Notes under the pieces: generated by a model
Databases searched by the model: none
Told to the model about the DNA's origin: nothing
What the model saw: only the letters and a program-made list of their open reading frames with translations
Made by a program: the position numbers and the translations under genes
Shown here: positions 1 to 32,446 of the stretch, one piece after another
Layout: the number at the start of each line of letters is the position of its first letter
Position numbering within the stretch: position 1 is the stretch's first letter
NCBI GenBank assembly: GCA_041742075.1
Contig: JBGSJJ010000015.1
Coordinates: forward strand, 1,132-65,131
Direction: 5' to 3'
DNA: 64,000 nucleotides
From: Minisyncoccia bacterium
Lineage (GTDB): Bacteria; Patescibacteriota; Minisyncoccia; Phycocordibacterales; UBA918

Positions 1-2808
1 CCAACCGCCTCTCCAATATCGACGAGATGGTTAGTTGTCAGGTCTACACCATAACACTGCTGACAGACACCTCGGAGGGTCTTACAGGTCATTGGTGAGC
101 GCACCACAACCGATTCGCACGTTGTACCTTCAATAGCAGTTGCGTCTCGACGACTGATCAAGTGTCCGCGCTTGAAAATAAGGTTACCCTTAGTATCTAC
201 CGCATCTTCGGCTAAGACGCGACCACGAATGGCTTTACTAAAGGCGATTTCAATACCTGAGGCACTGATTCGTCCGATCGTTACACCGTCTTTTGTTTTA
301 CAGTCTGCCTCCGTTACAATCGCGTCTTGCGCGACTACGAAGAGACGACGAGTAAGGTACCCGGCCTTTGCAGTTTGAAGGGCGGTGTCGGCTAGTCCTT
401 TTCGTGAACCGGTTGTTGTCGTGAAGTATTCAATTGGACTCATCCCTTCCTTCATTGAAGAAATTACGGGAAACTCTACCGTCTCACCTCGAGTGTTTAC
501 GATAAGTCCTTTCATACCGGCCATCTGAGCAATCTGTCCGAGTGAACCTCGAGCACCAGACTTCCACATATCGAAGGCTGAGCCTTGTGGGTCGAGCGTA
601 TCCGGGAGGATTTGTTCAAGTTCAGTCTTGGCTTTGTGCCATACTTCAACAATCATACGACGTCGTTCATCTCGTGAGAGAAGACCTTCGGCGAAGTGCT
701 CCGCAATGACTTTCTCTACATCGCGAGCTTTCGCTACAATGGAATCCTTTTCTTTTGGTACAACCACTTCGTCGATACCCCAAGTTGTTCCAGACACAGT
801 CGCGTACTTAAATCCAAATCGCTTGAGTTTGTCTACTACCGCTGGCACCGCATCAACCCCCTGGTCTTCAATCAAGTCCACAATCACGGTGAAGAGGTCT
901 CGCTGGGTCACCAGACTATTTACAAATGGGTGGTCACTTGGCAGAACGCTGTTGAACAGCAATCGTCCAACTGATGTTTCAAATACTTTTCCTTCATACT
1001 GTGCGTATTTCGGGGTATCAGTTGAGAGTACTTTAATCTTGGCTCTAAAGTCTACTACACCATAGTCGTACGCATTGATAGCATCGTTTGGACTAGAGAA
1101 GAATTTACCTTCACCATTTTTTCCTTCTACTATCTTGGTCATCCAAAATGCACCAAGCGCCATATCGAGAAGTTTTTCAGACACGACTGGTTCAGCTGAA
1201 CCCGGCTTCAAAACGTTCTTGTTGGCTGAGATGATCTCTCTCGCTTCCATTTGTGCTTCGTCTGAGAGTGGTACGTGGACCGCCATCTGGTCACCGTCGA
1301 AGTCGGCGTTAAAGGCGCGACACACGAGTGGGTGCACTTGGATAGCGTTACCTTCGATAAGGACCGGACGGAACGCCTGAATACCCTGACGGTGAAGAGT
1401 TGGAGCGCGGTTGAGGAGCACATACTTATGCTTAATCACGTCTTCAAGAATCGCCCACACTTCAGGCACCCCATCTTCAATCAATCGGCCAGCGCCACGG
1501 ATGTTGTAGGCAAGTTCTTGCTTCAAGAGTTGTGCGATAACGAACGGTCGGAAGAGTTCAAGGGCCATGTGCTTTGGCAGACCACACTGGTCAAGCTTAA
1601 GCTCAGGTCCAATCACGATTACTGAACGACCAGAGTAGTCGACTCGTTTTCCGAGTAGGTTCTGACGGAAGTAACCTTGCTTACTCTTAAGGTAATCAGA
1701 GAGTGACTTAAGTGGACGACGCTGCGCTTGACTCATCGCTGAGTACGCACCGTTACCATGTCGGATTGAGTTATCGATAAGCGCATCAACCGCTTCTTGG
1801 AGAATACGCTTTTCGTTACGCAAGATAACGTCTGGTGCCATAATGTCGATAAGCTTCTTCAGACGATTGTTTCGGTTGATAACACGCCTGTAGAGGTCAT
1901 TTAAGTCTGACGAAGCGTGTCGACCTCCTTCAAGCGCTACCATTGGCCGAAGGGCTGGAGGGATAACTGGCACTCGGTTGAGGAACATCCATTCTGGACG
2001 AACCCCTGAGTGAATCAAACCGCGGATGAGATTGAGACGTTTATCAAGCTTTGCTCGTTCTGCAATACCTGCTTTTTCACGCTCACTCTCGAGTCGATCC
2101 TTAAGCACCTTGAGGTCAAGGTTTTTAAAGATTTCGAAAATTGATTCAGCACCGATCTTAGCTTCAAAGAGATTTGAATATTTAACCGAATATTTATGGA
2201 ACGTTGTTTCATCAAGCACCACGCCTGGTTGAACGTTTTCAATTTCATGCTTCATTTCAGTCATGCGCACCTTGAGTGCATCTTTAGCATCTTCGTTTTG
2301 AAGTTCTTTCGTGCGTGACTTAAACTCAGTGTCGAGCTCTCGTAGGAGTCGGGCTCGTTCTTCTTCAGTTACTTTCGTAACAATATATCCAGCAAAGTAG
2401 ATGACTTTTTCAACTGATGCCGCAGTAATACCGAGAATAAGGGCAATTCGACTTGGCACACCACGGAGGAACCAAATGTGCGATACGGGTACACAAAGTT
2501 CAATGTGCCCCATTCGTTCACGTCGTACGATAGCGCGCGTGACTTCTACTCCACACTTCTCACAGACGATACCTTTATAGCGGATACCGCGATACTTCTT
2601 ACAAGAACATTCATAGTCCTCAACTGGTCCAAAGATACGTTCGTCGAAAAGACCGTGCTTTTCAGGGCGCTGGGTTCGGTAGTTGATGGTTTCCGGCTTG
2701 GTGACTTCACCAAATGACCAATCGAGAATACGTTCCGGTGAAGCGAGTTTTAAACTCACTTCCGTGAACTGTGTTGGGATTGCTCGTTTTTGTGTATGTG
2801 GATTCATA
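1..2808 (-). CDS. rpoC: DNA-directed RNA polymerase subunit beta-prime (RpoC), C-terminally truncated by the window edge. Start ATG at 2808-2806. Not in the ORF track because no stop lies inside the window.
   Basis: Manual minus-strand translation from 2808 gives [30 protein letters not shown]...[24 protein letters not shown] (Zn finger) ...[16 protein letters not shown] (catalytic NADFDGD). The frame stays open down to position 1. Confidence 0.9.
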
Positions 2809-6646: not shown

Positions 6647-6706
6647 CCCCAATTTTCTTATGGTCACCCTCGACAAGCACAGCGGGAACGCTGTGCTTTT
6701 TCTTTT
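6647..6706. repeat. Direct repeat copy 1 (52/52 with 1 mismatch, about 60 nt with looser flanks). A duplicated copy of the trmD 3' end lying just downstream of the mazF stop.
   Basis: ttcttatggtcaccctcgacaagcacagcgggaacgctgtgctttttctttt matches 7358-7409. It contains the hairpin AGCACAGCG-ggaa-CGCTGTGCT. Confidence 0.85.
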
Positions 6707-7040
6707 ATAACCCCAATTGCAGGCGCAACACATTCTCAACTGCTTGTAGATCACTAGCTGAGAGGTCAGCGATACGAGTGCCGAAACGCTGATGACTTAC
6801 GGTTCTAATCTGGTCAGTCATCGCTTTACTCCGCTGACGCTTAACAGTAACTAAACACTCACTTGGGTACACATGAGTGGTATTCGAAGTCAGCGGAACC
6901 ACCTGCACACGATTAAGATGCTTGTTAGCCATGTCATTACTGACTACAATCGCCGGTCGCTTCTTTTTCACTTCACTCCCTCGAGCAGGATTAAGATTGA
7001 CCCACCACACGGAGCCTCTCTTTGGTTTTAGAACCGCCAT
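6705..7040 (-). CDS. mazF: MazF/PemK/Kid-family endoribonuclease toxin (type II TA).
   Basis: 111 aa with VWWVNLNPARGSEVKKKRPAIVVSND...VVPLTS, typical of PemK/MazF. Overlaps the upstream antitoxin by 13 nt. Confidence 0.8.
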   Translation of the reverse strand: MAVLKPKRGSVWWVNLNPARGSEVKKKRPAIVVSNDMANKHLNRVQVVPLTSNTTHVYPSECLVTVKRQRSKAMTDQIRTVSHQRFGTRIADLSASDLQAVENVLRLQLGL

Positions 7041-7279
7041 ACATTTTCTGCTTCAAGCGTCTCATCAGTTCCATGTAGCCACTCACCCGCTTCGGCCTCA
7101 CGTGCGCTATCTTTAGCCATAGCTTTATACCCAGCTTCTATATCATCAACAATAACGTGCGGTCGAGCTAGTTGACTCAAGTACTCACCAACACCACGCG
7201 CACCGACTCGTGCTCGCAAACCTGCGTACACCTGCTCATCGAGCATTATTGTAATTTTCTTTTTTATGGCTGTTTTCAT
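7028..7279 (-). CDS. Antitoxin, probably leaderless, starting MKTAIKKKITIMLDEQVYAGLRAR (RHH/CopG-like). The ORF track extends it to 7306.
   Basis: Small ORF overlapping the toxin start. Operator palindromes sit immediately 5' of the ATG at 7279. Confidence 0.6.
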   Translation of the reverse strand: MKTAIKKKITIMLDEQVYAGLRARVGARGVGEYLSQLARPHVIVDDIEAGYKAMAKDSAREAEAGEWLHGTDETLEAENVWRF

Positions 7280-7316
7280 AATACGTATTATAATACGTAT
7301 TAGCATTTTGTGTCAA
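7280..7316 (-). promoter_or_regulatory. Promoter and operator of the TA cassette: TTGACA-N18-TATAAT, with two tandem 10-bp palindromes AATACGTATT overlapping the -10. The ATG lies about 7 nt after the -10.
   Basis: Plus strand 7280-7301 reads aatacgtattataatacgtatt (two perfect palindromes). The -35 tgtcaa is at 7311-7316 on plus. Confidence 0.55.
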
Positions 7317-7330
7317 TATACTGTTGTGCG

Positions 7331-8005
7331 CTACTCTTTCGCACGCCAAGCCTCAATCTTCTTATGGTCACCCTCGACGAGCACAGCGGGAACGCTGTGC
7401 TTTTTCTTTTTGTACTCCAGGACCTCAGGACGAGTGTACGTTTCCCCACTCGTTGCGCGTTCATCTTCAAGTGAGTCATGGGTACCAAGCACGCCTGGAA
7501 TATGCCGAACAACCGCGTCGATAATCGTGAGCGCCGGCAGTTCACCACCAGTGAGCACATAATCTCCAACTGAGATCTCTTCCGCCTTCAAAATACTTTT
7601 TACGCGACCATCAATCCCCTCGTAGCGACCTGAGATAAGGACCACGTGGTCGTACTTTTTGGCGTACTCTTTGGCAAGCGCTTGCGTGAATACCTGTCCC
7701 CGAGGCGACATAATCAGTGTCTTAATTTTCTTTGCATCTTTCTTCTTCCCTACTGCTTTCTCCCAAGCTCGCAAAATTGGTTCAGCAATCATCACCATAC
7801 CCGGCCCGCCACCATACGGCCGATCATCAACTTTCTTGTGCTTATCTTTCGTGAAGTCTCTTGGATTGTAGTAACTTACCGCTATTTTTTTTCCTCGCAC
7901 CTTAGCTCCCTTTCCCTTTTCAGTCTTCTGCGCACGACCAAGCACGCTGGCGCTCGTGTAAGCTTCGCAGACTTCTGGAAAAATTGTTATGACGTGAAAA
8001 TGCAT
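7331..8005 (-). CDS. trmD: tRNA (guanine37-N1)-methyltransferase TrmD.
   Basis: MHFHVITIFPE...PYGGGPGMVM...LTGGELPA. Canonical SPOUT TrmD motifs. Confidence 0.93.
   Translation of the reverse strand: MHFHVITIFPEVCEAYTSASVLGRAQKTEKGKGAKVRGKKIAVSYYNPRDFTKDKHKKVDDRPYGGGPGMVMIAEPILRAWEKAVGKKKDAKKIKTLIMSPRGQVFTQALAKEYAKKYDHVVLISGRYEGIDGRVKSILKAEEISVGDYVLTGGELPALTIIDAVVRHIPGVLGTHDSLEDERATSGETYTRPEVLEYKKKKHSVPAVLVEGDHKKIEAWRAKE
7350..7409. repeat. Direct repeat copy 2, lying inside the trmD 3' coding end. It encodes KKKHSVPAVLVEGDHKK.
   Basis: Near-identical to 6647-6706. Confidence 0.85.
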
Positions 8006-8068
8006 AGTAATAATAAAATCCTAGCATGGAAACAGGTAAGTAAGAACTCTTACAGAAACCACCCCAAC

Positions 8069-8106
8069 TAAACCTTTACCTATCATTAATGATAGGTAAA
8101 GGTTTA
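8069..8106. promoter_or_regulatory. 38-bp perfect palindrome taaacctttACCTATCATtaATGATAGGTaaaggttta overlapping the stop codon of the TrpR-like gene. Motif copy A. Either an operator or a bidirectional terminator hairpin.
   Basis: Perfect inverted repeat with 18-bp arms, followed by aaatttttt on plus. Confidence 0.6.
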
Positions 8107-8558
8107 AATTTTTTGAGTACAGCATCTGCCAGATTAAAAAGTAAAAAATGCATTGGGTATTGTTTGCGTAAATGACTGAACGTCAATGATTCTATATGCT
8201 CTTTTTGCTGTCGATTTTGGAGTGACTTTTTTGCTTGTCTATCCTCGACTTCTAATTGGTACGCTTTGAGTGAATCTTCGTAATGTGGCACCTGTCCCTG
8301 TAACCACTTCCGAGTTCGTGAGAAAGTGTTCGGACTTACATTAAAATTGTAGCTTATTTCTGCTTGTGATTTTCCGGCTAAAATGAGCTGTGCAATGAGT
8401 ATGCGTCTTCCGATTGTTATTCGCTCACTTTCAGTCAACAGTTCATTTATAAAGGTAACAACTCCATCCCTACTACTCATACACTCTGCAACAGACATAA
8501 GCGCATCGAGTGTGACCTGTTTCTCACTGTACTTTAATTTATTTATACTTTTACTCAT
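8076..8558 (-). CDS. TrpR-like / YerC-YecD family HTH DNA-binding protein. It occupies the position where rimM normally sits between the KH gene and trmD.
   Basis: 160 aa. LLTESERITIGRRILIAQLILAGKSQAEISYNFNVSPNTFSRTRKWL resembles the TrpR/YerC helix-turn-helix. Confidence 0.5.
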   Translation of the reverse strand: MSKSINKLKYSEKQVTLDALMSVAECMSSRDGVVTFINELLTESERITIGRRILIAQLILAGKSQAEISYNFNVSPNTFSRTRKWLQGQVPHYEDSLKAYQLEVEDRQAKKSLQNRQQKEHIESLTFSHLRKQYPMHFLLFNLADAVLKKFKPLPIINDR

Positions 8559-8572
8559 ATCACTCTATTTTA

Positions 8573-8588
8573 CTATCATCAATGATAG
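8573..8588. promoter_or_regulatory. Palindrome CTATCATcaATGATAG (motif copy B), 15-30 nt upstream of the TrpR-like start codon and overlapping its putative promoter.
   Basis: Shares the 15-nt core tatcatcaatgatag with copy C at 23501-23520. Confidence 0.5.
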
Positions 8589-8603
8589 ATAGAAATAGTA
8601 TGA

Positions 8604-8642
8604 AAATACCCTTCTTCGCTTACAAGCGAAGAAGGGTATTTT
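8604..8642. terminator. Bidirectional rho-independent terminator: 17-bp perfect stem AAAATACCCTTCTTCGC-ttacaa-GCGAAGAAGGGTATTTT.
   Basis: Perfect palindrome with A/T-tract flanks, between the KH gene stop and the TrpR-like gene start. Confidence 0.7.
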
Positions 8643-8659
8643 CAAGTCAGCTAAATAGT

Positions 8660-9013
8660 TTATATCTTCAAATCATCTATCGCCTCGTCGAGGGATTTTG
8701 GACTAACGCTCACCTCTTCAGTTGCTCCTCCGTAAGACTCAGTGGTGTCACTGTGCATAATCCGGCCACCTTCTGGCTCGTTAATCTTAAGGTTCACGCG
8801 GGCGTCGTGCTTCATACCGACGACTCGAAGTAGCGTACGGATCGCTTTCGCGGTATTGCCTGAACGACCAATAATTTTGCCCATATCTTCGGCATGTACG
8901 TCAAGCGTGAGTAACACTCCCATTTCATCAACGGTTCGATTTACTTTTACACTTTCTGGATGGTCCACAAGCGCCGTTACTACTGTTTCTAGAAATTGCT
9001 GATCTTCTTGCAT
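8660..9013 (-). CDS. KH-domain RNA-binding protein (YlqC/KhpA-like, UPF0109).
   Basis: GKIIGRSGNTAKAIRTLLRV KH motif. Conserved position after rpsP. Confidence 0.75.
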   Translation of the reverse strand: MQEDQQFLETVVTALVDHPESVKVNRTVDEMGVLLTLDVHAEDMGKIIGRSGNTAKAIRTLLRVVGMKHDARVNLKINEPEGGRIMHSDTTESYGGATEEVSVSPKSLDEAIDDLKI

Positions 9014-9110
9014 ATGCTTATGTTCGCTCTACTAAATTATGTCTAAGTGCTTAGAACTCATTAATGTTCTTAGCTCGTTATATAGTACGAGGCTCTTTAG
9101 CATACGTCAA

Positions 9111-9143
9111 CCGCCCCAACTTCACAAAGTGAAGTTGGGGCGG
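9111..9143. terminator. Perfect 15-bp palindromic hairpin CCGCCCCAACTTCAC-aaa-GTGAAGTTGGGGCGG downstream of rpsP.
   Basis: Perfect inverted repeat, but with weak T-tracts. Confidence 0.4.
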
Positions 9144-9158
9144 ACTAAAACGATATAG

Positions 9159-9638
9159 TTAGACTACTTTGGTTTCTTCCTCTGTCGGTACTACTTCAGC
9201 TGGAGTTTCCTCAACTACTGCAGTCGCAACTTCTTCAACCGGAGTGGCGGCGGCTTCTTCGGCTGCCTGCGCAACTGCGAGTGCCTCAGCTTCTGCCTTT
9301 GCCTTCGCGTCAGCTTCTGCTTTCTTAGCATCTTCCGCAGCCTTAATAGCGGCTTCGTCGATAATTGGAGACTTCTTAGAAAGCGCGTTTACTTTCTTGC
9401 CTTCAATCACTTTCTTCGTAATAAGAAGATTGTGTACGGTATCAGAAGGCTGTACTCCCTTACTCATCCAGTCAGTCACTTTCGCGCTGTCAATAATAAA
9501 ATGCTTTGTTTTTGGGTTGTATGAACCAACCTGATCCACGTGCTTATTGCTCTTTGGACCAGTTCGTTTATCAGTGACCACAATCCGGTACGACGGATCG
9601 TTTTTTCGGCCAACTCGTTGTAATCGCATCATTAACAT
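9159..9638 (-). CDS. rpsP: 30S ribosomal protein S16 with a long Ala/Glu/Lys-rich C-terminal extension. Start taken at MLMMRLQRVGR; the ORF track extends it to 9689.
   Basis: MRLQRVGRKNDPSYRIVVTDKRTGPKSNKHVDQVGSYNPKT matches bS16. Confidence 0.85.
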   Translation of the reverse strand: MLMMRLQRVGRKNDPSYRIVVTDKRTGPKSNKHVDQVGSYNPKTKHFIIDSAKVTDWMSKGVQPSDTVHNLLITKKVIEGKKVNALSKKSPIIDEAAIKAAEDAKKAEADAKAKAEAEALAVAQAAEEAAATPVEEVATAVVEETPAEVVPTEEETKVV

Positions 9639-9685
9639 ATAGTGGCCAGAAGAGTAACAGAAAGCACTGTTTTGGTCAATAGACA

Positions 9686-9720
9686 GCAAAATCCGCCCGA
9701 GTCAAAGCTGGCTCGGGCGG
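9686..9720 (-). terminator. Terminator hairpin CCGCCCGAG-N10-CTCGGGCGG followed by a T-tract on the minus strand. Terminates the islet-1 gene.
   Basis: GC-rich stem plus ATTTTGCTG on minus. Confidence 0.55.
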
Positions 9721-9751
9721 AGGAATGTGGGTGGTGGCGTGCTACAGGAAC

Positions 9752-10084
9752 TTACTGTTGGGGGAAGACTGTGAACAGTTCGGCTCGAGTACTCTCGTCC
9801 ATCTGACTAAGGATGTCTTCAGAAACCCAAACCGGGATAGTGCGCTTCGTGGGTCTCGGCGACTTCCAAACCGGTACATCGGGATCATCTGACCCCGTTA
9901 TGAGCCCAACGAGCTTATCGAGCGGTAATGGATCATCGTTCAGGGTATATGTTCGGCACAGATTAAGGAGCGGCGCACGGCCATATATTTCAGCGTCGAA
10001 ACCCAACCCCGATCTTTCGTGTACAACGATAGCCAAGTGCTGTTGTGCTGGTGGTACAGCACTGACGATGGTGACTTTCGGCAT
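9752..10084 (-). CDS. Hypothetical small protein (110 aa) in GC-rich islet 1. Paralog of the protein at 32078-32389.
   Basis: Local GC about 55-58% against a genome near 47%. Its own TTGACA...TATAAG-like promoter, an aaaagga RBS and a terminator. Shared motif CRxxxxx(D/E)D(P/Y)P...P(L/V)D...(L/I)VLI with the islet-2 protein. Confidence 0.5.
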   Translation of the reverse strand: MPKVTIVSAVPPAQQHLAIVVHERSGLGFDAEIYGRAPLLNLCRTYTLNDDPLPLDKLVGLITGSDDPDVPVWKSPRPTKRTIPVWVSEDILSQMDESTRAELFTVFPQQ

Positions 10085-10184
10085 GTTGGTTTTCCTTTTC
10101 CACGACTTGCAACTGAAGCCACCTTATAACAAATACACCGTTTGTCAATACTGAGCATTTCTGCTAAACTCAAGCCACTTATTT

Positions 10185-12143
10185 ATGACTACAGAAACAT
10201 ATACTGGACCACTCATGGTTCGTGGCAAAGGGGTCGGTTTTTTTAGAAGGCCAGAAGCACTCGAAGACGAAGAAGACATCGTTATTACTACCGAACAACT
10301 CGGGTTTGCACTTGATGGCGATATTGTTGAAATTACCCTTCTTCCGAAGGTAGCCGGCCGGCGGCGCGAAGGCAAAGTTACAAAAGTAGTAGAGTCCGCT
10401 CGGACTGAGTTTATTGGCGTGGTTCGGGCCCCTGAAGGGACCAGGACGACTCATTTCATGGTGTGTGATAATACCCGCATCCACATAAAGTTTTTGCTTC
10501 CTGAAGCCTCAAGTGACCTTGTAGGCATGAAAGTAGTGGTCACTATACGTGAGTGGAAAAATCCCCTGACTGAGCCAATTGCCACTATTATTGAAACTCT
10601 CGGCAAAGCAGGTGATCATGAAACTGAAATGCAGGCTATCATACGAGGTGGCGGTTTTTCGGAAAATTTCCTACCGCCGATTCAAGAAGCTGGGCAGGCA
10701 CTCTACGATAACCGCGAGCAGATATTTGCTGACGCGGTAACTGCCACACTCGGAGAAAACCCTACCAGGCGGGATATGCGTGATCGACTGACGATGACGA
10801 TTGACCCGAAAGACGCGAAAGACTTTGACGATGCGCTGTCGCTCCATGTACTTCCTGACGGTAACTACGAAATTGGTATCCACATTGCCGACGTCTCACA
10901 CTACGTTCGGGAAGGTGACGTAATTGACCAAGAAGCCCAGCATCGCGGAACTTCTATTTATTTAGTCGACCGGGTGATTCCGATGCTTCCTGAAGTCTTA
11001 AGTAACGACCTTTGTTCACTTCGGCCACACGAAGACCGACTGTCTTTTTCAGCCGTGTTCACCATGAACGATGACGCTCAGATAGTGAGTGAGTGGTACG
11101 GTCAAACCATCATCCACTCCAACCGACGCTTTAGCTATGAAGAGGCCCAAGAAGTTTTAGATACCCAAAGTGGCGACAATCTCGAAGAACTGAATACCAT
11201 GATGCGGCTCGGGCGACTGCTCCGCGCACGACGGTTTAAAGACGGCGCGATTGCCTTTGAGCAACCAGAGGTGCGTTTCGAACTCGATGAAAACGGCAAG
11301 CCAATCCGAGCATACACTAAGGTGCGTACCGAAACTATGCTCATGATTGAGGACTTTATGCTTCTTGCGAACCAAAAGGTTACTGAGTACATTTACACCC
11401 TCACTAAAAGTAAAAGCAAAGACGCCGCCTTTATCTATCGTATTCACGATTCACCGGACCCAGACAAAATTGAAGAGCTAGCGATTTTTATTCACGCGCT
11501 TGGGTATGAGTTTGAGACGAACAAAGGTCTCGTTACAGCCAAAAACATCAACAAGCTGTTGAAAGAAGTTGAGGGTAAGCCAGAAGAAAACCTCATCAAA
11601 ACCGCGACGATTCGATCAATGGCAAAAGCGGTGTACTCTACCCGCAACATCGGCCACTTTGGTCTCGCTTTTAAGTACTACACCCACTTCACCTCTCCGA
11701 TTCGTCGTTACCCCGACCTGATGGCTCATCGACTCCTCAGGAAACACCTAGACGGTGTCACGATTAGCAGTCGCGAGATGTCACACAATGAACGACTGGC
11801 TGTGCAGTGTTCAGAACGGGAGATGTACGCGGTGCGTGCCGAACGTGACTCCATCAAGTTTAAACAAGTGGAGTTCATGCTTGATAAAGTCGGACAGACT
11901 TTTAAAGGGATTGTTACCGGTGTGGCTGAATGGGGTATCTATGTGCAAGAGGTTGAATCGCAAGCTGAAGGGTTAGTTCGCCTTGCCTCAATTAAAGGTG
12001 ATTATTTCAATCACGAACCAAAGTCTTATCGCGTCAAAGGTGAGAAAACCGGTGCTGCTTTCGCACTTGGTGATGAGGTAACTATGAAGCTCACCCGCGC
12101 CTCACTTGAAGACAGGCAACTCGATTTTGAGCTCGTAAAATAG
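10185..12143 (+). CDS. rnr: Ribonuclease R / RNase II family 3'-5' exoribonuclease.
   Basis: 652 aa. RNB domain HIADVSHYV, N-terminal cold-shock/OB region, S1-like C-terminus. Confidence 0.9.
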   Translation: MTTETYTGPLMVRGKGVGFFRRPEALEDEEDIVITTEQLGFALDGDIVEITLLPKVAGRRREGKVTKVVESARTEFIGVVRAPEGTRTTHFMVCDNTRIHIKFLLPEASSDLVGMKVVVTIREWKNPLTEPIATIIETLGKAGDHETEMQAIIRGGGFSENFLPPIQEAGQALYDNREQIFADAVTATLGENPTRRDMRDRLTMTIDPKDAKDFDDALSLHVLPDGNYEIGIHIADVSHYVREGDVIDQEAQHRGTSIYLVDRVIPMLPEVLSNDLCSLRPHEDRLSFSAVFTMNDDAQIVSEWYGQTIIHSNRRFSYEEAQEVLDTQSGDNLEELNTMMRLGRLLRARRFKDGAIAFEQPEVRFELDENGKPIRAYTKVRTETMLMIEDFMLLANQKVTEYIYTLTKSKSKDAAFIYRIHDSPDPDKIEELAIFIHALGYEFETNKGLVTAKNINKLLKEVEGKPEENLIKTATIRSMAKAVYSTRNIGHFGLAFKYYTHFTSPIRRYPDLMAHRLLRKHLDGVTISSREMSHNERLAVQCSEREMYAVRAERDSIKFKQVEFMLDKVGQTFKGIVTGVAEWGIYVQEVESQAEGLVRLASIKGDYFNHEPKSYRVKGEKTGAAFALGDEVTMKLTRASLEDRQLDFELVK

Positions 12144-12150
12144 TCTATAT

Positions 12151-12196
12151 AAAAACAAAGAGCCGGCGCACTTCGTGCGCCGGCTCTTTGGTTTTG
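12151..12196. terminator. Bidirectional terminator AAAGAGCCGGCGCAC-ttc-GTGCGCCGGCTCTTT + GGTTTTG, between rnr(+) and smc(-).
   Basis: Perfect 15-bp GC-rich stem with flanking A/T tracts. Confidence 0.8.
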
Positions 12197-14470
12197 CTAT
12201 TTAGCCACTGTTGCAGCTTCGTCAAACTTTACCGACAAAAGCTTTGATACCCCATCACCTCCCATCGTCACGCCATAGAGTATGCCGGCCCGACTCATTG
12301 TCTCGCGATTGTGCGTAATTAAAATAAGTTGAGACTTTTGGGCTAACGCCTCAATCATGTCACCGTAGCGTCGACTATTAGCCTCATCAAGCGCTGCATC
12401 GGTTTCATCAAGAATAATAAACAGCGGCGGATTGACCTGACTCATAGCAAAAATAAGCGCGATTGAAGTCAGTGCTCGCTCCCCGCCTGAAAGCATCTCG
12501 AGACCGCGCACCCGCTTGTTTGGCAGTTTAACATCAAGCTCAATACCCTCTTCACCTTCCTCCTCCTCAGTCAGGTCAGTTTCTGTATCTTCTTCAAGTA
12601 CTGTCTCGTCTGCTTTTTTTCGTACTTTTGGCTTTACTCGCACCAGGTTAGCTTCCCCGCCACCAAACATAAGTATGAAAAAACGATTGAATTCTGTGCC
12701 GATTTTCTCAATACCAGTTATAAAATACCCACTCAGTTCGGCAGTGAGTTCAGCCATAAGTGTCTCTAGTTTCGTCACCGACTCTTCAAGGTCGGTAATT
12801 TCACGCACTAAAAACTCATCTCGTTCTTTGACTTCTTTGTATTCTTTTTCAATGTCAGCATTTACACCACCGAGTTCCTCTAGGCGAATTTTAATTTTTT
12901 CGAGCTCGCGTCTTCGTTCGTACTGTTTCGTTCTTTCCTCGCTTGCAATGTGCGCCAGGCTTAAAGAAGCACCATCTTGCATGACTTCAAGTTCATAATA
13001 CAGTGAGGCATCGCGACCAAGCAGGGTAACTGCTTCTTGCAGTTCACGCTTAAACTCTTCTCGCTCCCGTTCGAGAACGTTCCGCTCGTGATTTATTCTC
13101 GAGATAACTGCTTCGCATTCTCGCTGTGCTCCCATAACACGGAAAATTTCACGCTCTGCCTCCCGACTCTCAGACTGTTCCGACTCAATTGAAGCTCTCA
13201 GTTTTTTGTAGGCCTCTCTACGCTCTTCTTCTGATTTTTCACACTCGATTATTTGCTTAGCTAGTTCGGCGTGTTCTTTTTGTAACTCATCTAATTCCTT
13301 TTCTTCCGCATTGGTATTAGCGCTGACTGAACCGAGGGCAGTCTGAAGAAACTTCTTACCCAAATGCACCACATCAGACAAAGCTCGCTGAAGTAACGGA
13401 ACTTCAGTACTGATAAGTGAGCGGGTGGCCATATCTTCAAGCGCACTTATAAATCGCTTTACTTCACCCACTGGTATTGGAGCGTCGCTTTCGCTTTGAC
13501 TGACCCGCTCCATCTCGACAATTCTACGCTTGATATAGTCTACCTGCCCTTCAATGTTGCCACTTTTTCGAACCAGTCCTTGTCTTTTTTCTCGCACTTC
13601 TTTTGTCTCGCGCTCAAGCTGAAGCAACTCATCACTTTTAGCATCACGCTCGTGCATCTTGAGTAATTCTTTCGCTTGCGCCAGCTCACTCTCGAGCACT
13701 TCAAGTTGCTTAGTCGGTACCCGTATCTCTTTATCAAGTCTGTCATGATGCCAGGCAATATACGTATCCTCACGCTTGAGGTACTCAGCATAGACAGTAC
13801 CAAGTTCAGCCCGGAGCGAAATAGCTCGCTCAATTTTTTTAATTTGCCGTTCCAAAAATTGAATGTGGGGTGCGACCTCTCGCCTAAGAGACTGTACCTT
13901 TTCTATATTCTCCCTTGTCTTCACAAGCTTCTTATCAGCATCAGCAATCTTGTACTGATATACCTTGAGACCAAGGGCATCTTCGATCATTTCTCGGCGT
14001 TCCTTTGGACCAGCTGAGAGAATACGGTCGGCTTCACCTTGCGAAATAATATGGTGGCCAGTGGTACCAATGTTGGCGGCAGCTAGAAGCTCTTGGACGT
14101 CTTTCAGACGGACTTTTGAACCATTTATCAAGTACTCATTTTGACCATCGCGGTGAACTATACGCTCCACTACAATCTCATCAAAATCAACCCGAAACAC
14201 TCGACTGCGGTTATCGAGTACTACTACCACTGAAGCGCGGTTTGACCTTGAAACTGATTCTGAACCACCAAAAATAAGGTCTTCCCCTTTCTTCCCCCGC
14301 ATTGACTTAAGTGACTGTTCTCCAAGTACAAAGCGAAACGATTCGGCGACGTTACTCTTCCCGGAACCGTTTGGTCCCACTATGGCCGTAATCGGGGCAC
14401 TGAACTCAAGCTCGCCTTTCTTAGCGAATGATTTAAATCCTGAAATAGTAAGGTGCTTGAGGTACATCAA
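12197..14470 (-). CDS. smc: SMC-family chromosome segregation ATPase, short form (757 aa, no recognisable hinge).
   Basis: N-terminal Walker A GPNGSGKSN, extensive coiled coil, C-terminal LSGGERALTSIALIFA...ILDETDAALD signature and Walker B. The rnc-(pilin)-smc order recalls the rnc-smc synteny of Firmicutes. Confidence 0.7.
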   Translation of the reverse strand: MMYLKHLTISGFKSFAKKGELEFSAPITAIVGPNGSGKSNVAESFRFVLGEQSLKSMRGKKGEDLIFGGSESVSRSNRASVVVVLDNRSRVFRVDFDEIVVERIVHRDGQNEYLINGSKVRLKDVQELLAAANIGTTGHHIISQGEADRILSAGPKERREMIEDALGLKVYQYKIADADKKLVKTRENIEKVQSLRREVAPHIQFLERQIKKIERAISLRAELGTVYAEYLKREDTYIAWHHDRLDKEIRVPTKQLEVLESELAQAKELLKMHERDAKSDELLQLERETKEVREKRQGLVRKSGNIEGQVDYIKRRIVEMERVSQSESDAPIPVGEVKRFISALEDMATRSLISTEVPLLQRALSDVVHLGKKFLQTALGSVSANTNAEEKELDELQKEHAELAKQIIECEKSEEERREAYKKLRASIESEQSESREAEREIFRVMGAQRECEAVISRINHERNVLEREREEFKRELQEAVTLLGRDASLYYELEVMQDGASLSLAHIASEERTKQYERRRELEKIKIRLEELGGVNADIEKEYKEVKERDEFLVREITDLEESVTKLETLMAELTAELSGYFITGIEKIGTEFNRFFILMFGGGEANLVRVKPKVRKKADETVLEEDTETDLTEEEEGEEGIELDVKLPNKRVRGLEMLSGGERALTSIALIFAMSQVNPPLFIILDETDAALDEANSRRYGDMIEALAQKSQLILITHNRETMSRAGILYGVTMGGDGVSKLLSVKFDEAATVAK

Positions 14471-17787: not shown

Positions 17788-18453
17788 CTATATATTTTTG
17801 CAATAGCTGACCCGGTGGATATCTGTACAGCCATACTTTTTTATGGCCTGACGGTGGGCCGTCGTGCCATACCCTTTATGTACCCCAAGTGCATATTTCG
17901 AGTACTCTGGACGCTTCCCGACTCGCACCATATACCGGTCTCTGGTCACTTTTGCCATGATGGATGCCAGCCCAATTACCTTCTCTTTACTATCACCCTT
18001 AATTATTGTTTCTTGATGCACAAACTCTTTCGGTGCCCTTAGTCCCCCATCGAGCTTCACTAGCACCTCTTCCACCCCCATCTCTGCACCCATGCTTCCA
18101 GCTCGTTTCCCTAGGCCTTTCCTAGGGAAACTCCCTAGGAAAGGCCTAGGTTCAATTACTTTATAGAGGGCACGAGACATGGCCCTGGTGACAGACGGGA
18201 CGATACCAATCTGGTCGATTACTTTGGCAGACACCATTACTACGACATAATCGAGAGTACCTTCCCGCTTCAACATTTCTGCTTGTTTAAAAATTACTTC
18301 CCGCTTTAGCTCTGAAAGCTGCTTCGAATCATTCACTCCGGGTATAAGCGCCCAATCAAAATCACTTGGTACGAGCACTGCCCCAACCGCGACGGGTCCA
18401 GCCAAAGGCCCGCGCCCCGCTTCGTCTATCCCGATGAGCCATTTTTGATTCAT
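17788..18453 (-). CDS. rnhB: Ribonuclease HII, carrying an insertion of about 25 aa relative to E. coli RnhB that is encoded by a 41-nt perfect palindrome.
   Basis: GIDEAGRGPLAGPV...DSKQLS...KGDS...ASIMAKVTRD RNase HII motifs. Confidence 0.9.
   Translation of the reverse strand: MNQKWLIGIDEAGRGPLAGPVAVGAVLVPSDFDWALIPGVNDSKQLSELKREVIFKQAEMLKREGTLDYVVVMVSAKVIDQIGIVPSVTRAMSRALYKVIEPRPFLGSFPRKGLGKRAGSMGAEMGVEEVLVKLDGGLRAPKEFVHQETIIKGDSKEKVIGLASIMAKVTRDRYMVRVGKRPEYSKYALGVHKGYGTTAHRQAIKKYGCTDIHRVSYCKNI
18130..18170. repeat. 41-nt perfect palindrome CCTAGGCCTTTCCTAGGGA-aac-TCCCTAGGAAAGGCCTAGG lying in frame inside rnhB.
   Basis: 19-bp perfect arms. Encodes FPRKGLGKRAG within an insertion loop. Confidence 0.8.
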
Positions 18454-31949: not shown

Positions 31950-31995
31950 CAAAAACACCCGCCCCGAGGCCTTTGGCCTCGGGGCGGGTGTTTTA
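31950..31995 (+). terminator. Terminator AAAACACCCGCCCCGAGGCC-ttt-GGCCTCGGGGCGGGTGTTTT. Coordinates are +/-1.
   Basis: Long GC-rich palindrome with a T-tract, after the 30807-31919 gene. Confidence 0.7.
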
Positions 31996-32011
31996 TTTCT
32001 ACCTCAGGTAT

Positions 32012-32040
32012 GTTGACAATTCACTTATTTATACTATAAT
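32012..32040 (+). promoter_or_regulatory. Near-consensus sigma70 promoter TTGACA-N16-TATAAT driving the islet-2 gene.
   Basis: Read directly from the sequence. An aagagg RBS lies 6 nt before the ATG. Confidence 0.6.
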
Positions 32041-32077
32041 ACTACTGATACCCTGTCCCTCAAATCAAGAGGCCACC

Positions 32078-32389
32078 ATGACCAAGATCCCCTCGTACTG
32101 CAATCAGCTGGACTTTCCGTTGTTCGCAACGGAAAGCGGGAGCGTCGTTACCCCACGCCGCGCTGGGAACAAAGTCGCACTCGCCTACGTCGACGTCCGT
32201 CCGGCAGACCAGGCCTTCGGTATTCAGCCCAAGCAACCGGTCGCCCTCGCCGAGGTACTGATCCCGGCAAACGAACATGCCACCGCGTTCTGCCGCCAGC
32301 AAATGGTCGGCGAGGACTATCCGGGACCGACCTACCCGGTCGACCTCGAAGGTGAAATCGTCTTGATCACCCTTCAGCCCCAGGGCTGA
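32078..32389 (+). CDS. Hypothetical small protein (103 aa) in GC-rich islet 2 (about 62% GC). Paralog of the protein at 9752-10084.
   Basis: Strong promoter, RBS and downstream terminator. GC-rich third codon positions unlike neighbouring genes. Motif similarity with the islet-1 protein (FCRQQMVGEDYPGPTYPVDLEGEIVLI vs LCRTYTLNDDPLPLDKLVGLI). Confidence 0.55.
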   Translation: MTKIPSYCNQLDFPLFATESGSVVTPRRAGNKVALAYVDVRPADQAFGIQPKQPVALAEVLIPANEHATAFCRQQMVGEDYPGPTYPVDLEGEIVLITLQPQG

Positions 32390-32416
32390 GAAGTACAGGA
32401 CGAGAGCCTCAATCTG

Positions 32417-32446
32417 GAGCCCGCGACACTCGCGGGCTCTTATTTT
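32417..32446 (+). terminator. Terminator GAGCCCGCGA-cac-TCGCGGGCTC + ttatttt.
   Basis: GC stem plus T-tract. Confidence 0.75.

Follow-up and report, generated by a model that had tools for sequence, protein, structure and literature searches.

A probable lineage-specific accessory cassette between the divergent rpsP and rnr genes of a Kaiserbacteria-like Parcubacteria genome

Introduction

The 64,000-nt stretch of DNA analyzed here (hereafter the window) carries a compact unit, islet 1, between rpsP and rnr, two core genes in divergent orientation, and the question it raises is whether this unit is an imported foreign module or an accessory gene of a site whose content turns over. The first-pass annotation, made from the sequence alone, described islet 1 as a GC-rich, self-contained module with a small ORF and its own promoter and terminator, and likened it, together with a second islet thought to encode a paralog, to phage morons or mobile cargo. 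In this study, the composition, coding potential, homologs and signals of islet 1 were analyzed together with the corresponding loci of related genomes. The host is a Parcubacteria/Paceibacteria genome and Kaiserbacteria-like. The best explanation, with a probability of roughly 60%, regards islet 1 as an accessory cassette specific to this lineage, located in a replacement hotspot between rpsP and rnr.

Results

Anatomy of the module

Islet 1 is a 452-base unit of promoter, small gene and terminator between rpsP and rnr (Table 1). Its earlier description as a compact unit holds at the level of sequence signals, as a promoter, a Shine-Dalgarno (SD) motif, an ORF and a terminator are all present, and its placement between the rnr promoter and rpsP was likewise confirmed. 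The 110-aa ORF is found on the minus strand as annotated, and the ribosome-binding site claimed for it corresponds to the purine tract aaaaggaaaacc. The GC-rich terminator also stood: the predicted hairpin lies 30 nt past the ORF stop, has arms at 9692-9704 and 9709-9721 with 9 perfect pairs and 2 inner pairs (92% complementary), folds at -25.6 kcal/mol (z = -3.29; 0 of 200 shuffles equally stable), and is directly followed by AUUUUG (9691-9686, minus strand). The rpsP promoter, which aligns with scores of 65 and 50 to those of the related loci L005 and L004, begins 7 nt beyond the U-tract of this terminator. On the other side, the rnr promoter, kept in both L004 and L005, ends 14 nt before the rnr ATG (10185).

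Independent assemblies from three sequencing runs contain this DNA (Logan contigs, 100% identical to the window), so the arrangement is not a chimera; all four copies of the islet 1 DNA are identical, with no variation among them. A repeat search at the ends of the insert, 9686 and 10137, found no inverted repeats and only an imperfect 17-27-nt direct repeat of promoter sequence. No ncRNA or riboswitch was detected in the spacer by Rfam at E up to 1, and the hairpin was rejected as a member of a dispersed repeat family, its match count being equal to the chance expectation.

Table 1. Features of islet 1 and its borders, in positions of the window.
Feature	Position	Strand	Basis
Insert, no counterpart in closest relatives	9686..10137		BLASTN of window vs. 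L005 and L004
ORF, 110 aa (P0001), TAA stop	9752..10084	-	ORF list; best of six frames
SD-like AAAGGA, 8 nt 5' of ATG	10093..10098	-	Read from sequence; SD survey
Putative extended -10 TGtTATAAG of cassette promoter	10123..10131	-	Sequence
TATAAG hexamer preceded by TGT	10128-10123	-	Sequence
TTGACA hexamer, 14 nt upstream of TATAAG	10143..10148	-	Sequence; consensus scan
rnr promoter TTGTCA (10142-10147), 17-nt spacer, TGcTAAACT	10142..10170	+	Consensus scan
Predicted intrinsic terminator hairpin of cassette	9692..9721	-	Inverted repeat I1; RNA fold
rpsP core promoter TTGACC (9679-9674), 17-nt spacer, TACTCT (9656-9651)	9651..9679	-	Near-identical in L005 and L004
Imperfect direct repeat, left copy (rpsP promoter)	9655..9681	-	Local alignment; repeat family D3
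Imperfect direct repeat, right copy (cassette promoter)	10127..10150	-	Local alignment

Other atypical genes lie in the surroundings. A MazF/PemK-family toxin gene (6705-7306, minus strand; Pfam E = 1.6e-28), which overlaps with a 92-aa ORF upstream that may encode an antitoxin, sits directly downstream of trmD, and this pair is another accessory insertion beside the rpsP-trmD cluster. A gene for a TrpR-like HTH protein (8076-8558, minus strand), with an unusually low GC of 37%, is located between a KH-domain (KhpA-like) gene and trmD. Further away, a 116-aa ORF (1275-1625, plus strand) has a GC3 of 0.70 and no Pfam match, and may be a spurious frame or an atypical small gene.

Base composition and coding potential

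A local GC content of 55-58% with GC-rich third codon positions had been reported for islet 1. The calculated GC was 50.9% for the span 9686-10184, 52.3% for the ORF and 54.7% for the richest 333-nt segment, the window having a mean of 47.4% (sd 3.6%). In a comparison with 131 chunks of 330 nt taken in frame from host genes, the ORF lay at the 93rd percentile for GC and only at the 85th for GC3 (0.536), and its GC by codon position (0.61/0.42/0.53) followed the host-like pattern GC1>GC3>GC2. Islet 1 is no statistical outlier in GC or GC3, which both fall inside the host distribution, and neither of the two compositional claims survived calculation. In contrast, the synonymous codon usage of the ORF was atypical, at the 3rd percentile among the host gene chunks.

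The ORF frame scored a codon log-likelihood of 0.04 bits per codon, the best of the six frames; its coding score was higher than that of 99.5% of off-frame host chunks, but lower than that of 98.5% of true gene chunks. Since 3-8% of 499-nt sequences simulated with a Markov model contained an ORF of at least 110 aa by chance, the ORF length alone is weak evidence. An antisense 113-aa ORF in the islet had no Pfam match and poor coding scores. A decayed copy of the rnr 5' end on the plus strand of the islet (MSSETQTG vs. MTTETYTG) was considered and rejected as a chance likeness (blastx E = 0.13 in a single comparison).

The 110-aa protein has no homolog

The 110-aa protein has a pI of 4.96, is proline-rich (12 prolines) and shows, by inspection only, no evident signal peptide or transmembrane segment; the product is probably a small, mildly acidic, cytoplasmic protein. 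A word-seeded search of 5.8 billion clusters returned only the protein itself, and an exhaustive phmmer/HMMER scan of 1.84 billion representatives returned itself and two repeat proteins at E ~8e-4. These two, P0003 with Calx-beta repeats and P0004 with GLGxDAE repeats, were rejected as relatives because scores summed over 6-8 near-identical repeats mimic significance. Residues 75-98 do resemble the PGE..KTI.V.v.DD motif of P0003 (11/24 identical), with a score inflated by eight identical repeats; a Calx-beta domain was rejected as well, as no Pfam Calx-beta match was obtained at E up to 1 and the likeness is limited to these residues. Comparison with Pfam, NCBIfam, PHROGs, PADLOC and PDB sequences gave no credible match, a Pfam RabGGT_insert hit (E = 0.077) being below its cut-off and ignored. 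The proposed search of phages and plasmids was also negative, as neither tblastn of 50,697 phage records and 72,556 plasmids nor a scan of IMG/VR found a homolog. Across about 15 billion proteins overall no homolog of the 110-aa protein was found, and it is an ORFan.

A type II toxin-antitoxin module was rejected for islet 1, which has a single ORF without Pfam, NCBIfam or PADLOC match. The structural comparison that had been suggested for the two islet proteins was uninformative: the single-sequence AlphaFold2 model of the 110-aa protein reached a pLDDT of 43 and that of the islet 2 protein 48, too poor to compare.

Islet 2 is an unrelated ORFan

The second islet (31950-32446) contains an ORF at 32078-32389 on the plus strand, and its protein had been regarded as a paralog of the 110-aa protein. 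This relationship was not borne out, as BLASTP between the two gave E = 1.9 over 19 residues; the islet 2 ORF is a singleton ORFan unrelated to islet 1, and the predicted secondary-structure class of its protein, mostly beta in the AlphaFold2 model, differs from that of islet 1. With 61.5% GC and 75% GC3, the 100th percentile for both among host gene chunks, islet 2 is the real compositional outlier and the strongest GC outlier of the window. Its own signals comprise a perfect 12/12 promoter (TTGACA, 16 nt, TATAAT; 32013-32040), an AAGAGG SD and a terminator at 32416-32440.

The rpsP-rnr slot in related genomes

With RNase R as anchor, 80 genome loci and 80 metagenome loci were collected, whose RNase R proteins were 63-76% identical to that of the window; the fetched loci belong to Parcubacteria/Paceibacteria, many being labelled Kaiserbacteria. 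rpsP and rnr were divergent neighbors in 142 of the 142 loci where both genes were located, and the gap between them had a median of 236 bp (range 58-1909 bp; ≤250 bp in 76 loci, >450 bp in 32). In a neighbor-joining RNase R tree, the window grouped with L004 and L005. These nearest relatives are distant (RNase R 75-76% identical), and no closer ones were found in metagenomes, where the best RNase R identity was 73%.

The gaps of L004 and L005, 135 and 80 bp, are empty, that is, without an ORF. BLASTN of the window against these loci showed that homology stops at ~9685 on the rpsP side and resumes at ~10138 on the rnr side, which delimits the insert. The comparison of insertion points called for by the first-pass annotation thus showed that the cassette is absent from the closest relatives. 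Further, neither islet 1 nor islet 2 had a relative encoded in any of the 160 related loci, and the insert, searched by BLASTN in all 163 loci, matched only the three identical Logan contigs.

The slot was variable even among closely related genomes. In the pairs L084/L086, L089/L008 and L027/L096, RNase R is 89-92% identical, yet the slot ORFs are without detectable similarity; the flanking DNA is 95-97% identical on the rpsP side and 77-84% on the rnr side, with an abrupt end of homology at the slot edges. Unrelated slot DNA between rpsP flanks of 95-97% identity indicates replacement, not gradual divergence. The slot ORFs of relatives are diverse and lie preferentially on the rpsP strand. 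One slot family is common to L027, L089, L107 (three tandem copies) and L108, and pairs of slot ORFs with related sequence occur in L009 and L128 and in L030 and L052; other cargo includes a ParE toxin with an RHH antitoxin (L068), an IS200-like transposase (L042) and QueA (L131). With different ORFs, a recurring layout was found in L008, L012, L027, L083, L084, L086 and L089, in the stereotyped order of a promoter back-to-back with the rnr extended -10, an SD leader, the ORF, a GC-stem/U-tract terminator and the rpsP -35. As to function, our best guess for the 110-aa protein, of low confidence, is that it acts in conflict or interaction (immunity, antitoxin-like or anti-defence), suggested only because such hotspots carry such cargo, for example the ParE/RHH pair.

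Some features of individual loci were also observed. In L107, three tandem paralogous ORFs (149, 120 and 120 aa; 1563-2878, minus in the locus) fill the rpsP-rnr gap. About 50 nt upstream of rpsP (9633-9685; GGCCACTATATGTTA... back to TTGACC) are strongly conserved (L004-L163), the proteins being only ~70% identical. The interval between rnr and the convergent smc also varies by kilobases (L004-L083), measuring 54 bp in the window but >3 kb in L013; the rpsP-rnr gap is thus not the only variable slot.

The relatives also bear on the idea that islet 1 is a fast-evolving or de novo gene native to the slot, the cassettes being homologous beyond recognition or the ORF having arisen from spacer DNA. 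Homologous slot proteins do diverge far more than RNase R (52% vs. 88.7% identity in L107/L108, 44% vs. 72.6% in L009/L128), one slot family spans four loci, and the ORFan status and intermediate coding score of islet 1 would fit a young gene. By eye, islet 1 also shows a weak collinear likeness to the L009/L128 proteins (MPKVT..VP near the N-terminus; PVWVSEDILSQM vs. PIFMSESVFDTM). However, hhalign gave no significant match to the L009/L128 profile (P = 0.059, probability 0.9%), a phmmer search with islet 1 of the 5153 ORFs from all loci found nothing, iterative HMM searches of the slot families did not recruit it, and a diverged family joining it with the slot ORFs of L009/L128, L083, L059, L036 and L027 was rejected at BLASTP E values of 0.37 or worse. 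The assignment of islet 1 to the L009/L128 family, of which the large database contains only two members, is therefore unsupported as far as these sequences go. The lack of any DNA similarity inside the slots of the sister genomes, and the absence from the closest relatives of a spacer able to yield 452 bp, further speak against a native gene, which we regard as quite unlikely.

The predicted cassette promoter is built on host elements

The first-pass annotation had assigned the ORF a near-consensus promoter of its own. The two hexamers, TTGACA and TATAAG, do exist, but the distance between them is 14 nt, and the -35 belongs to the host bidirectional rnr/rpsP element. Owing to the 14-nt spacing, the pair was unreported by a consensus scan for spacers of 16-18 nt; the TTGACA uses the same base pairs as the -35 of the rnr promoter. 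The cassette promoter may be better read as an extended -10, TGtTATAAG, a motif that aligns with TGTTACTCT / TGTTAGTCT, the -10 of the rpsP promoter in the window and in L005.

In L005, the same back-to-back geometry exists as a single copy, namely GTTTGGTCAATAG, then 17 nt, then TACAAT, with one GGTCAA/TTGACC element serving as the -35 of both divergent genes. The region from -35 to -10 of the cassette aligns with both the rpsP promoter of the window and this single L005 promoter, and an 18-nt stretch of L005 aligns to both insert edges, that is, to both repeat copies. The direct-repeat alignment (TATTGACCAAAACAGTGCTTTCTGTTA vs. TATTGAC--AAACGGTG-TATTTGTTA) has a score of 21, with a shuffle P of 0.0035, but 22 of 2556 genomic 100-nt windows (~0.9%) score as high. 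A promoter duplication is moderately supported by these alignments, in which case the cassette promoter would probably be a degenerate duplicate of the rpsP promoter with its spacer shortened to 14 nt. We conclude that promoter elements of the host, and not a consensus promoter brought in from outside, would drive the cassette.

Translation signals of islet 1 and of its host

In the host, an SD 4-mer preceded 5 of 43 genes, which is the random rate (11.9% expected), and an SD 5-mer preceded 1 of 43. The islet 1 ORF has an SD 5-mer at the right spacing, and only 4% of random positions have one; SD-like motifs are present in both islet 1 and islet 2. Similarly, across the related loci an SD 4-mer was found before rnr in 5 of 142 and before rpsP in 0 of 142. 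In contrast, 18 of 29 slot ORFs had an SD 5-mer vs. 3 of 19 antisense control ORFs. The scarcity of SD motifs in host genes fits the published absence of the anti-SD in many Parcubacteria, of which only 48% were reported to have it (PMC9297842). As some Parcubacteria are without an anti-SD (PMC9297842), the SD-like motif of islet 1 may be nonfunctional. A 16S rRNA gene was not found within the window.

The rpsP leader is very short, ~10-15 nt. Besides, an extended -10 (TGnTAnnnT) ending 3-20 nt before the start codon was found in 8 of 43 host genes vs. 1.8% of random positions, short-leader examples being 10162-10184 and the regions upstream of 17788-18453 and of 18971. This pattern suggests that leaderless or very short-leader mRNAs may be widespread in this Parcubacteria genome.

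These signals and the coding scores also bear on whether the ORF is nonfunctional, a chance or decaying frame in an expanded spacer, where the hairpin and hexamers would serve only rpsP and rnr regulation. The chance rate of such ORFs, a coding score below that of nearly all real gene chunks, the lack of homologs, the low-confidence structure prediction and the general absence of SD use in host genes are all in line with it. However, the frame beats the five others and nearly all off-frame chunks, the SD 5-mer is correctly spaced, a terminator follows shortly past the stop, and the same architecture surrounds other ORFs in relatives, 18 of 29 of them with SD, which indicates that the slot normally holds expressed genes. 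A nonfunctional ORF is therefore very unlikely.

Origin and expression of the cassette

Taken as a lineage-specific accessory cassette, islet 1 would be transcribed from the extended -10, back-to-back with the rnr promoter, with a leader of ~32 nt, and the 110-aa ORF would be translated from its SD, unlike most host genes. The hairpin would end this transcription just before the rpsP -35, so that rpsP keeps its own promoter. Most likely, the cassette was gained in this lineage after the split from the nearest sampled relatives, and recombination via the conserved rpsP/rnr flanks or via promoter sequence would be a likely route; a loss of the cassette in those relatives, at 75-76% RNase R identity, is a possible alternative to gain. 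The cassette contains no mobility gene, inverted repeats or att-like core. As no donor sequence was found anywhere, horizontal acquisition is inferred solely from the absence of the cassette in relatives.

The foreign origin proposed earlier stood in part. A moron-like or mobile cargo that recently arrived from a phage, a plasmid or a GC-richer donor with its own promoter and terminator would account for the absence of islet 1 from all 160 loci, its self-contained form, its atypical synonymous codon usage and mildly raised GC, and its SD motif in a genome where SD motifs otherwise occur at the random rate. In contrast, no phage or plasmid source was found in the collections searched, nor any homolog among the proteins; the flanks are core genes and not prophage genes, GC and GC3 lie inside the host distribution, the -35 is the host bidirectional element within a promoter resembling that of rpsP, and transposase, integrase and terminal inverted repeats are all lacking. 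We consider such an arrival unlikely. The idea of a foreign module was right in one limited sense, that islet 1 lies outside the core genome, is specific to its lineage and occupies a slot with changing content; islet 1 is a fairly ordinary strain-specific accessory gene, and not clearly a GC-rich foreign island.

Comparison with known systems

Phage morons are units of promoter, ORF and terminator inserted between phage genes. Islet 1 resembles them in that, judged by its signals, it would form a compact autonomous transcription unit with atypical codon usage that is absent from relatives. It differs from them in lying outside any prophage, in having no phage homolog and in a promoter built on host elements; the genes around it encode S16, a KH-domain protein, TrmD, RNase R and SMC, and no PHROG, phage or IMG/VR match was obtained, so the moron label was not sustained. 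An insertion of an IS, MITE or transposon was rejected too, as neither a transposase nor terminal inverted repeats were found and the only direct repeat was the imperfect one of promoter sequence.

Integron cassettes are similar to the slot occupants in being single variable ORFs, each with a 3' hairpin inverted repeat, at a fixed site with a conserved resident promoter, and tandem occupants also occur, up to three in L107. Unlike in integrons, no intI was called by the slot, the ORF list of 7000-13000 contains no recombinase-sized ORF, and no integrase match was returned when six rpsP-side ORFs were scanned with Pfam. Nor were attC R/L core motifs seen when the hairpins of the window and its relatives were read by eye, these being dissimilar, plain GC-stem/U-tract terminators without a common core. 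A bolder and doubtful reading is that in this Parcubacteria clade the rpsP/rnr bidirectional promoter region acts as a dedicated expression slot in which cassettes of an SD-led orphan ORF and terminator would be swapped without an integrase, the exchange proceeding by recombination via the conserved promoter or the flanking core genes. If true, it would constitute an integron-like reservoir of fast-turnover small proteins in reduced symbiont genomes, with islet 1 as one cassette.

A close parallel is given by the core-gene-flanked integration/replacement hotspots of E. coli, the "genomic islets" (Touchon et al., 2009; PMC2617782). Like these, the rpsP-rnr slot has constant core flanks (142/142 loci) and a content that differs even among close relatives with sharp homology breaks; its cargo includes toxin-antitoxin and IS genes and many ORFans, and exchange is possible via the homologous flanks, with no dedicated mobility gene needed. 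Unlike them, the slot is very small, usually with one gene of 80-240 aa, and lies inside a bidirectional promoter region where the occupants have a stereotyped SD-ORF-terminator layout; further, its host belongs to the candidate-phyla bacteria with reduced genomes, and recombination is here a putative mechanism. By itself, islet 1 is one more hypothetical ORFan, and such genes are abundant in the phylum. The useful result is its context, a tiny stereotyped slot in the promoter region of core genes, with turnover of single-gene cargo between flanking genes whose proteins are ~90% identical, and with SD leaders on the cargo but none on the housekeeping genes of the same genomes. If this pattern holds, the slot would provide a natural marker for gene flow and orphan-gene turnover in uncultivated Patescibacteria, and a place to seek host-interaction or defence factors.
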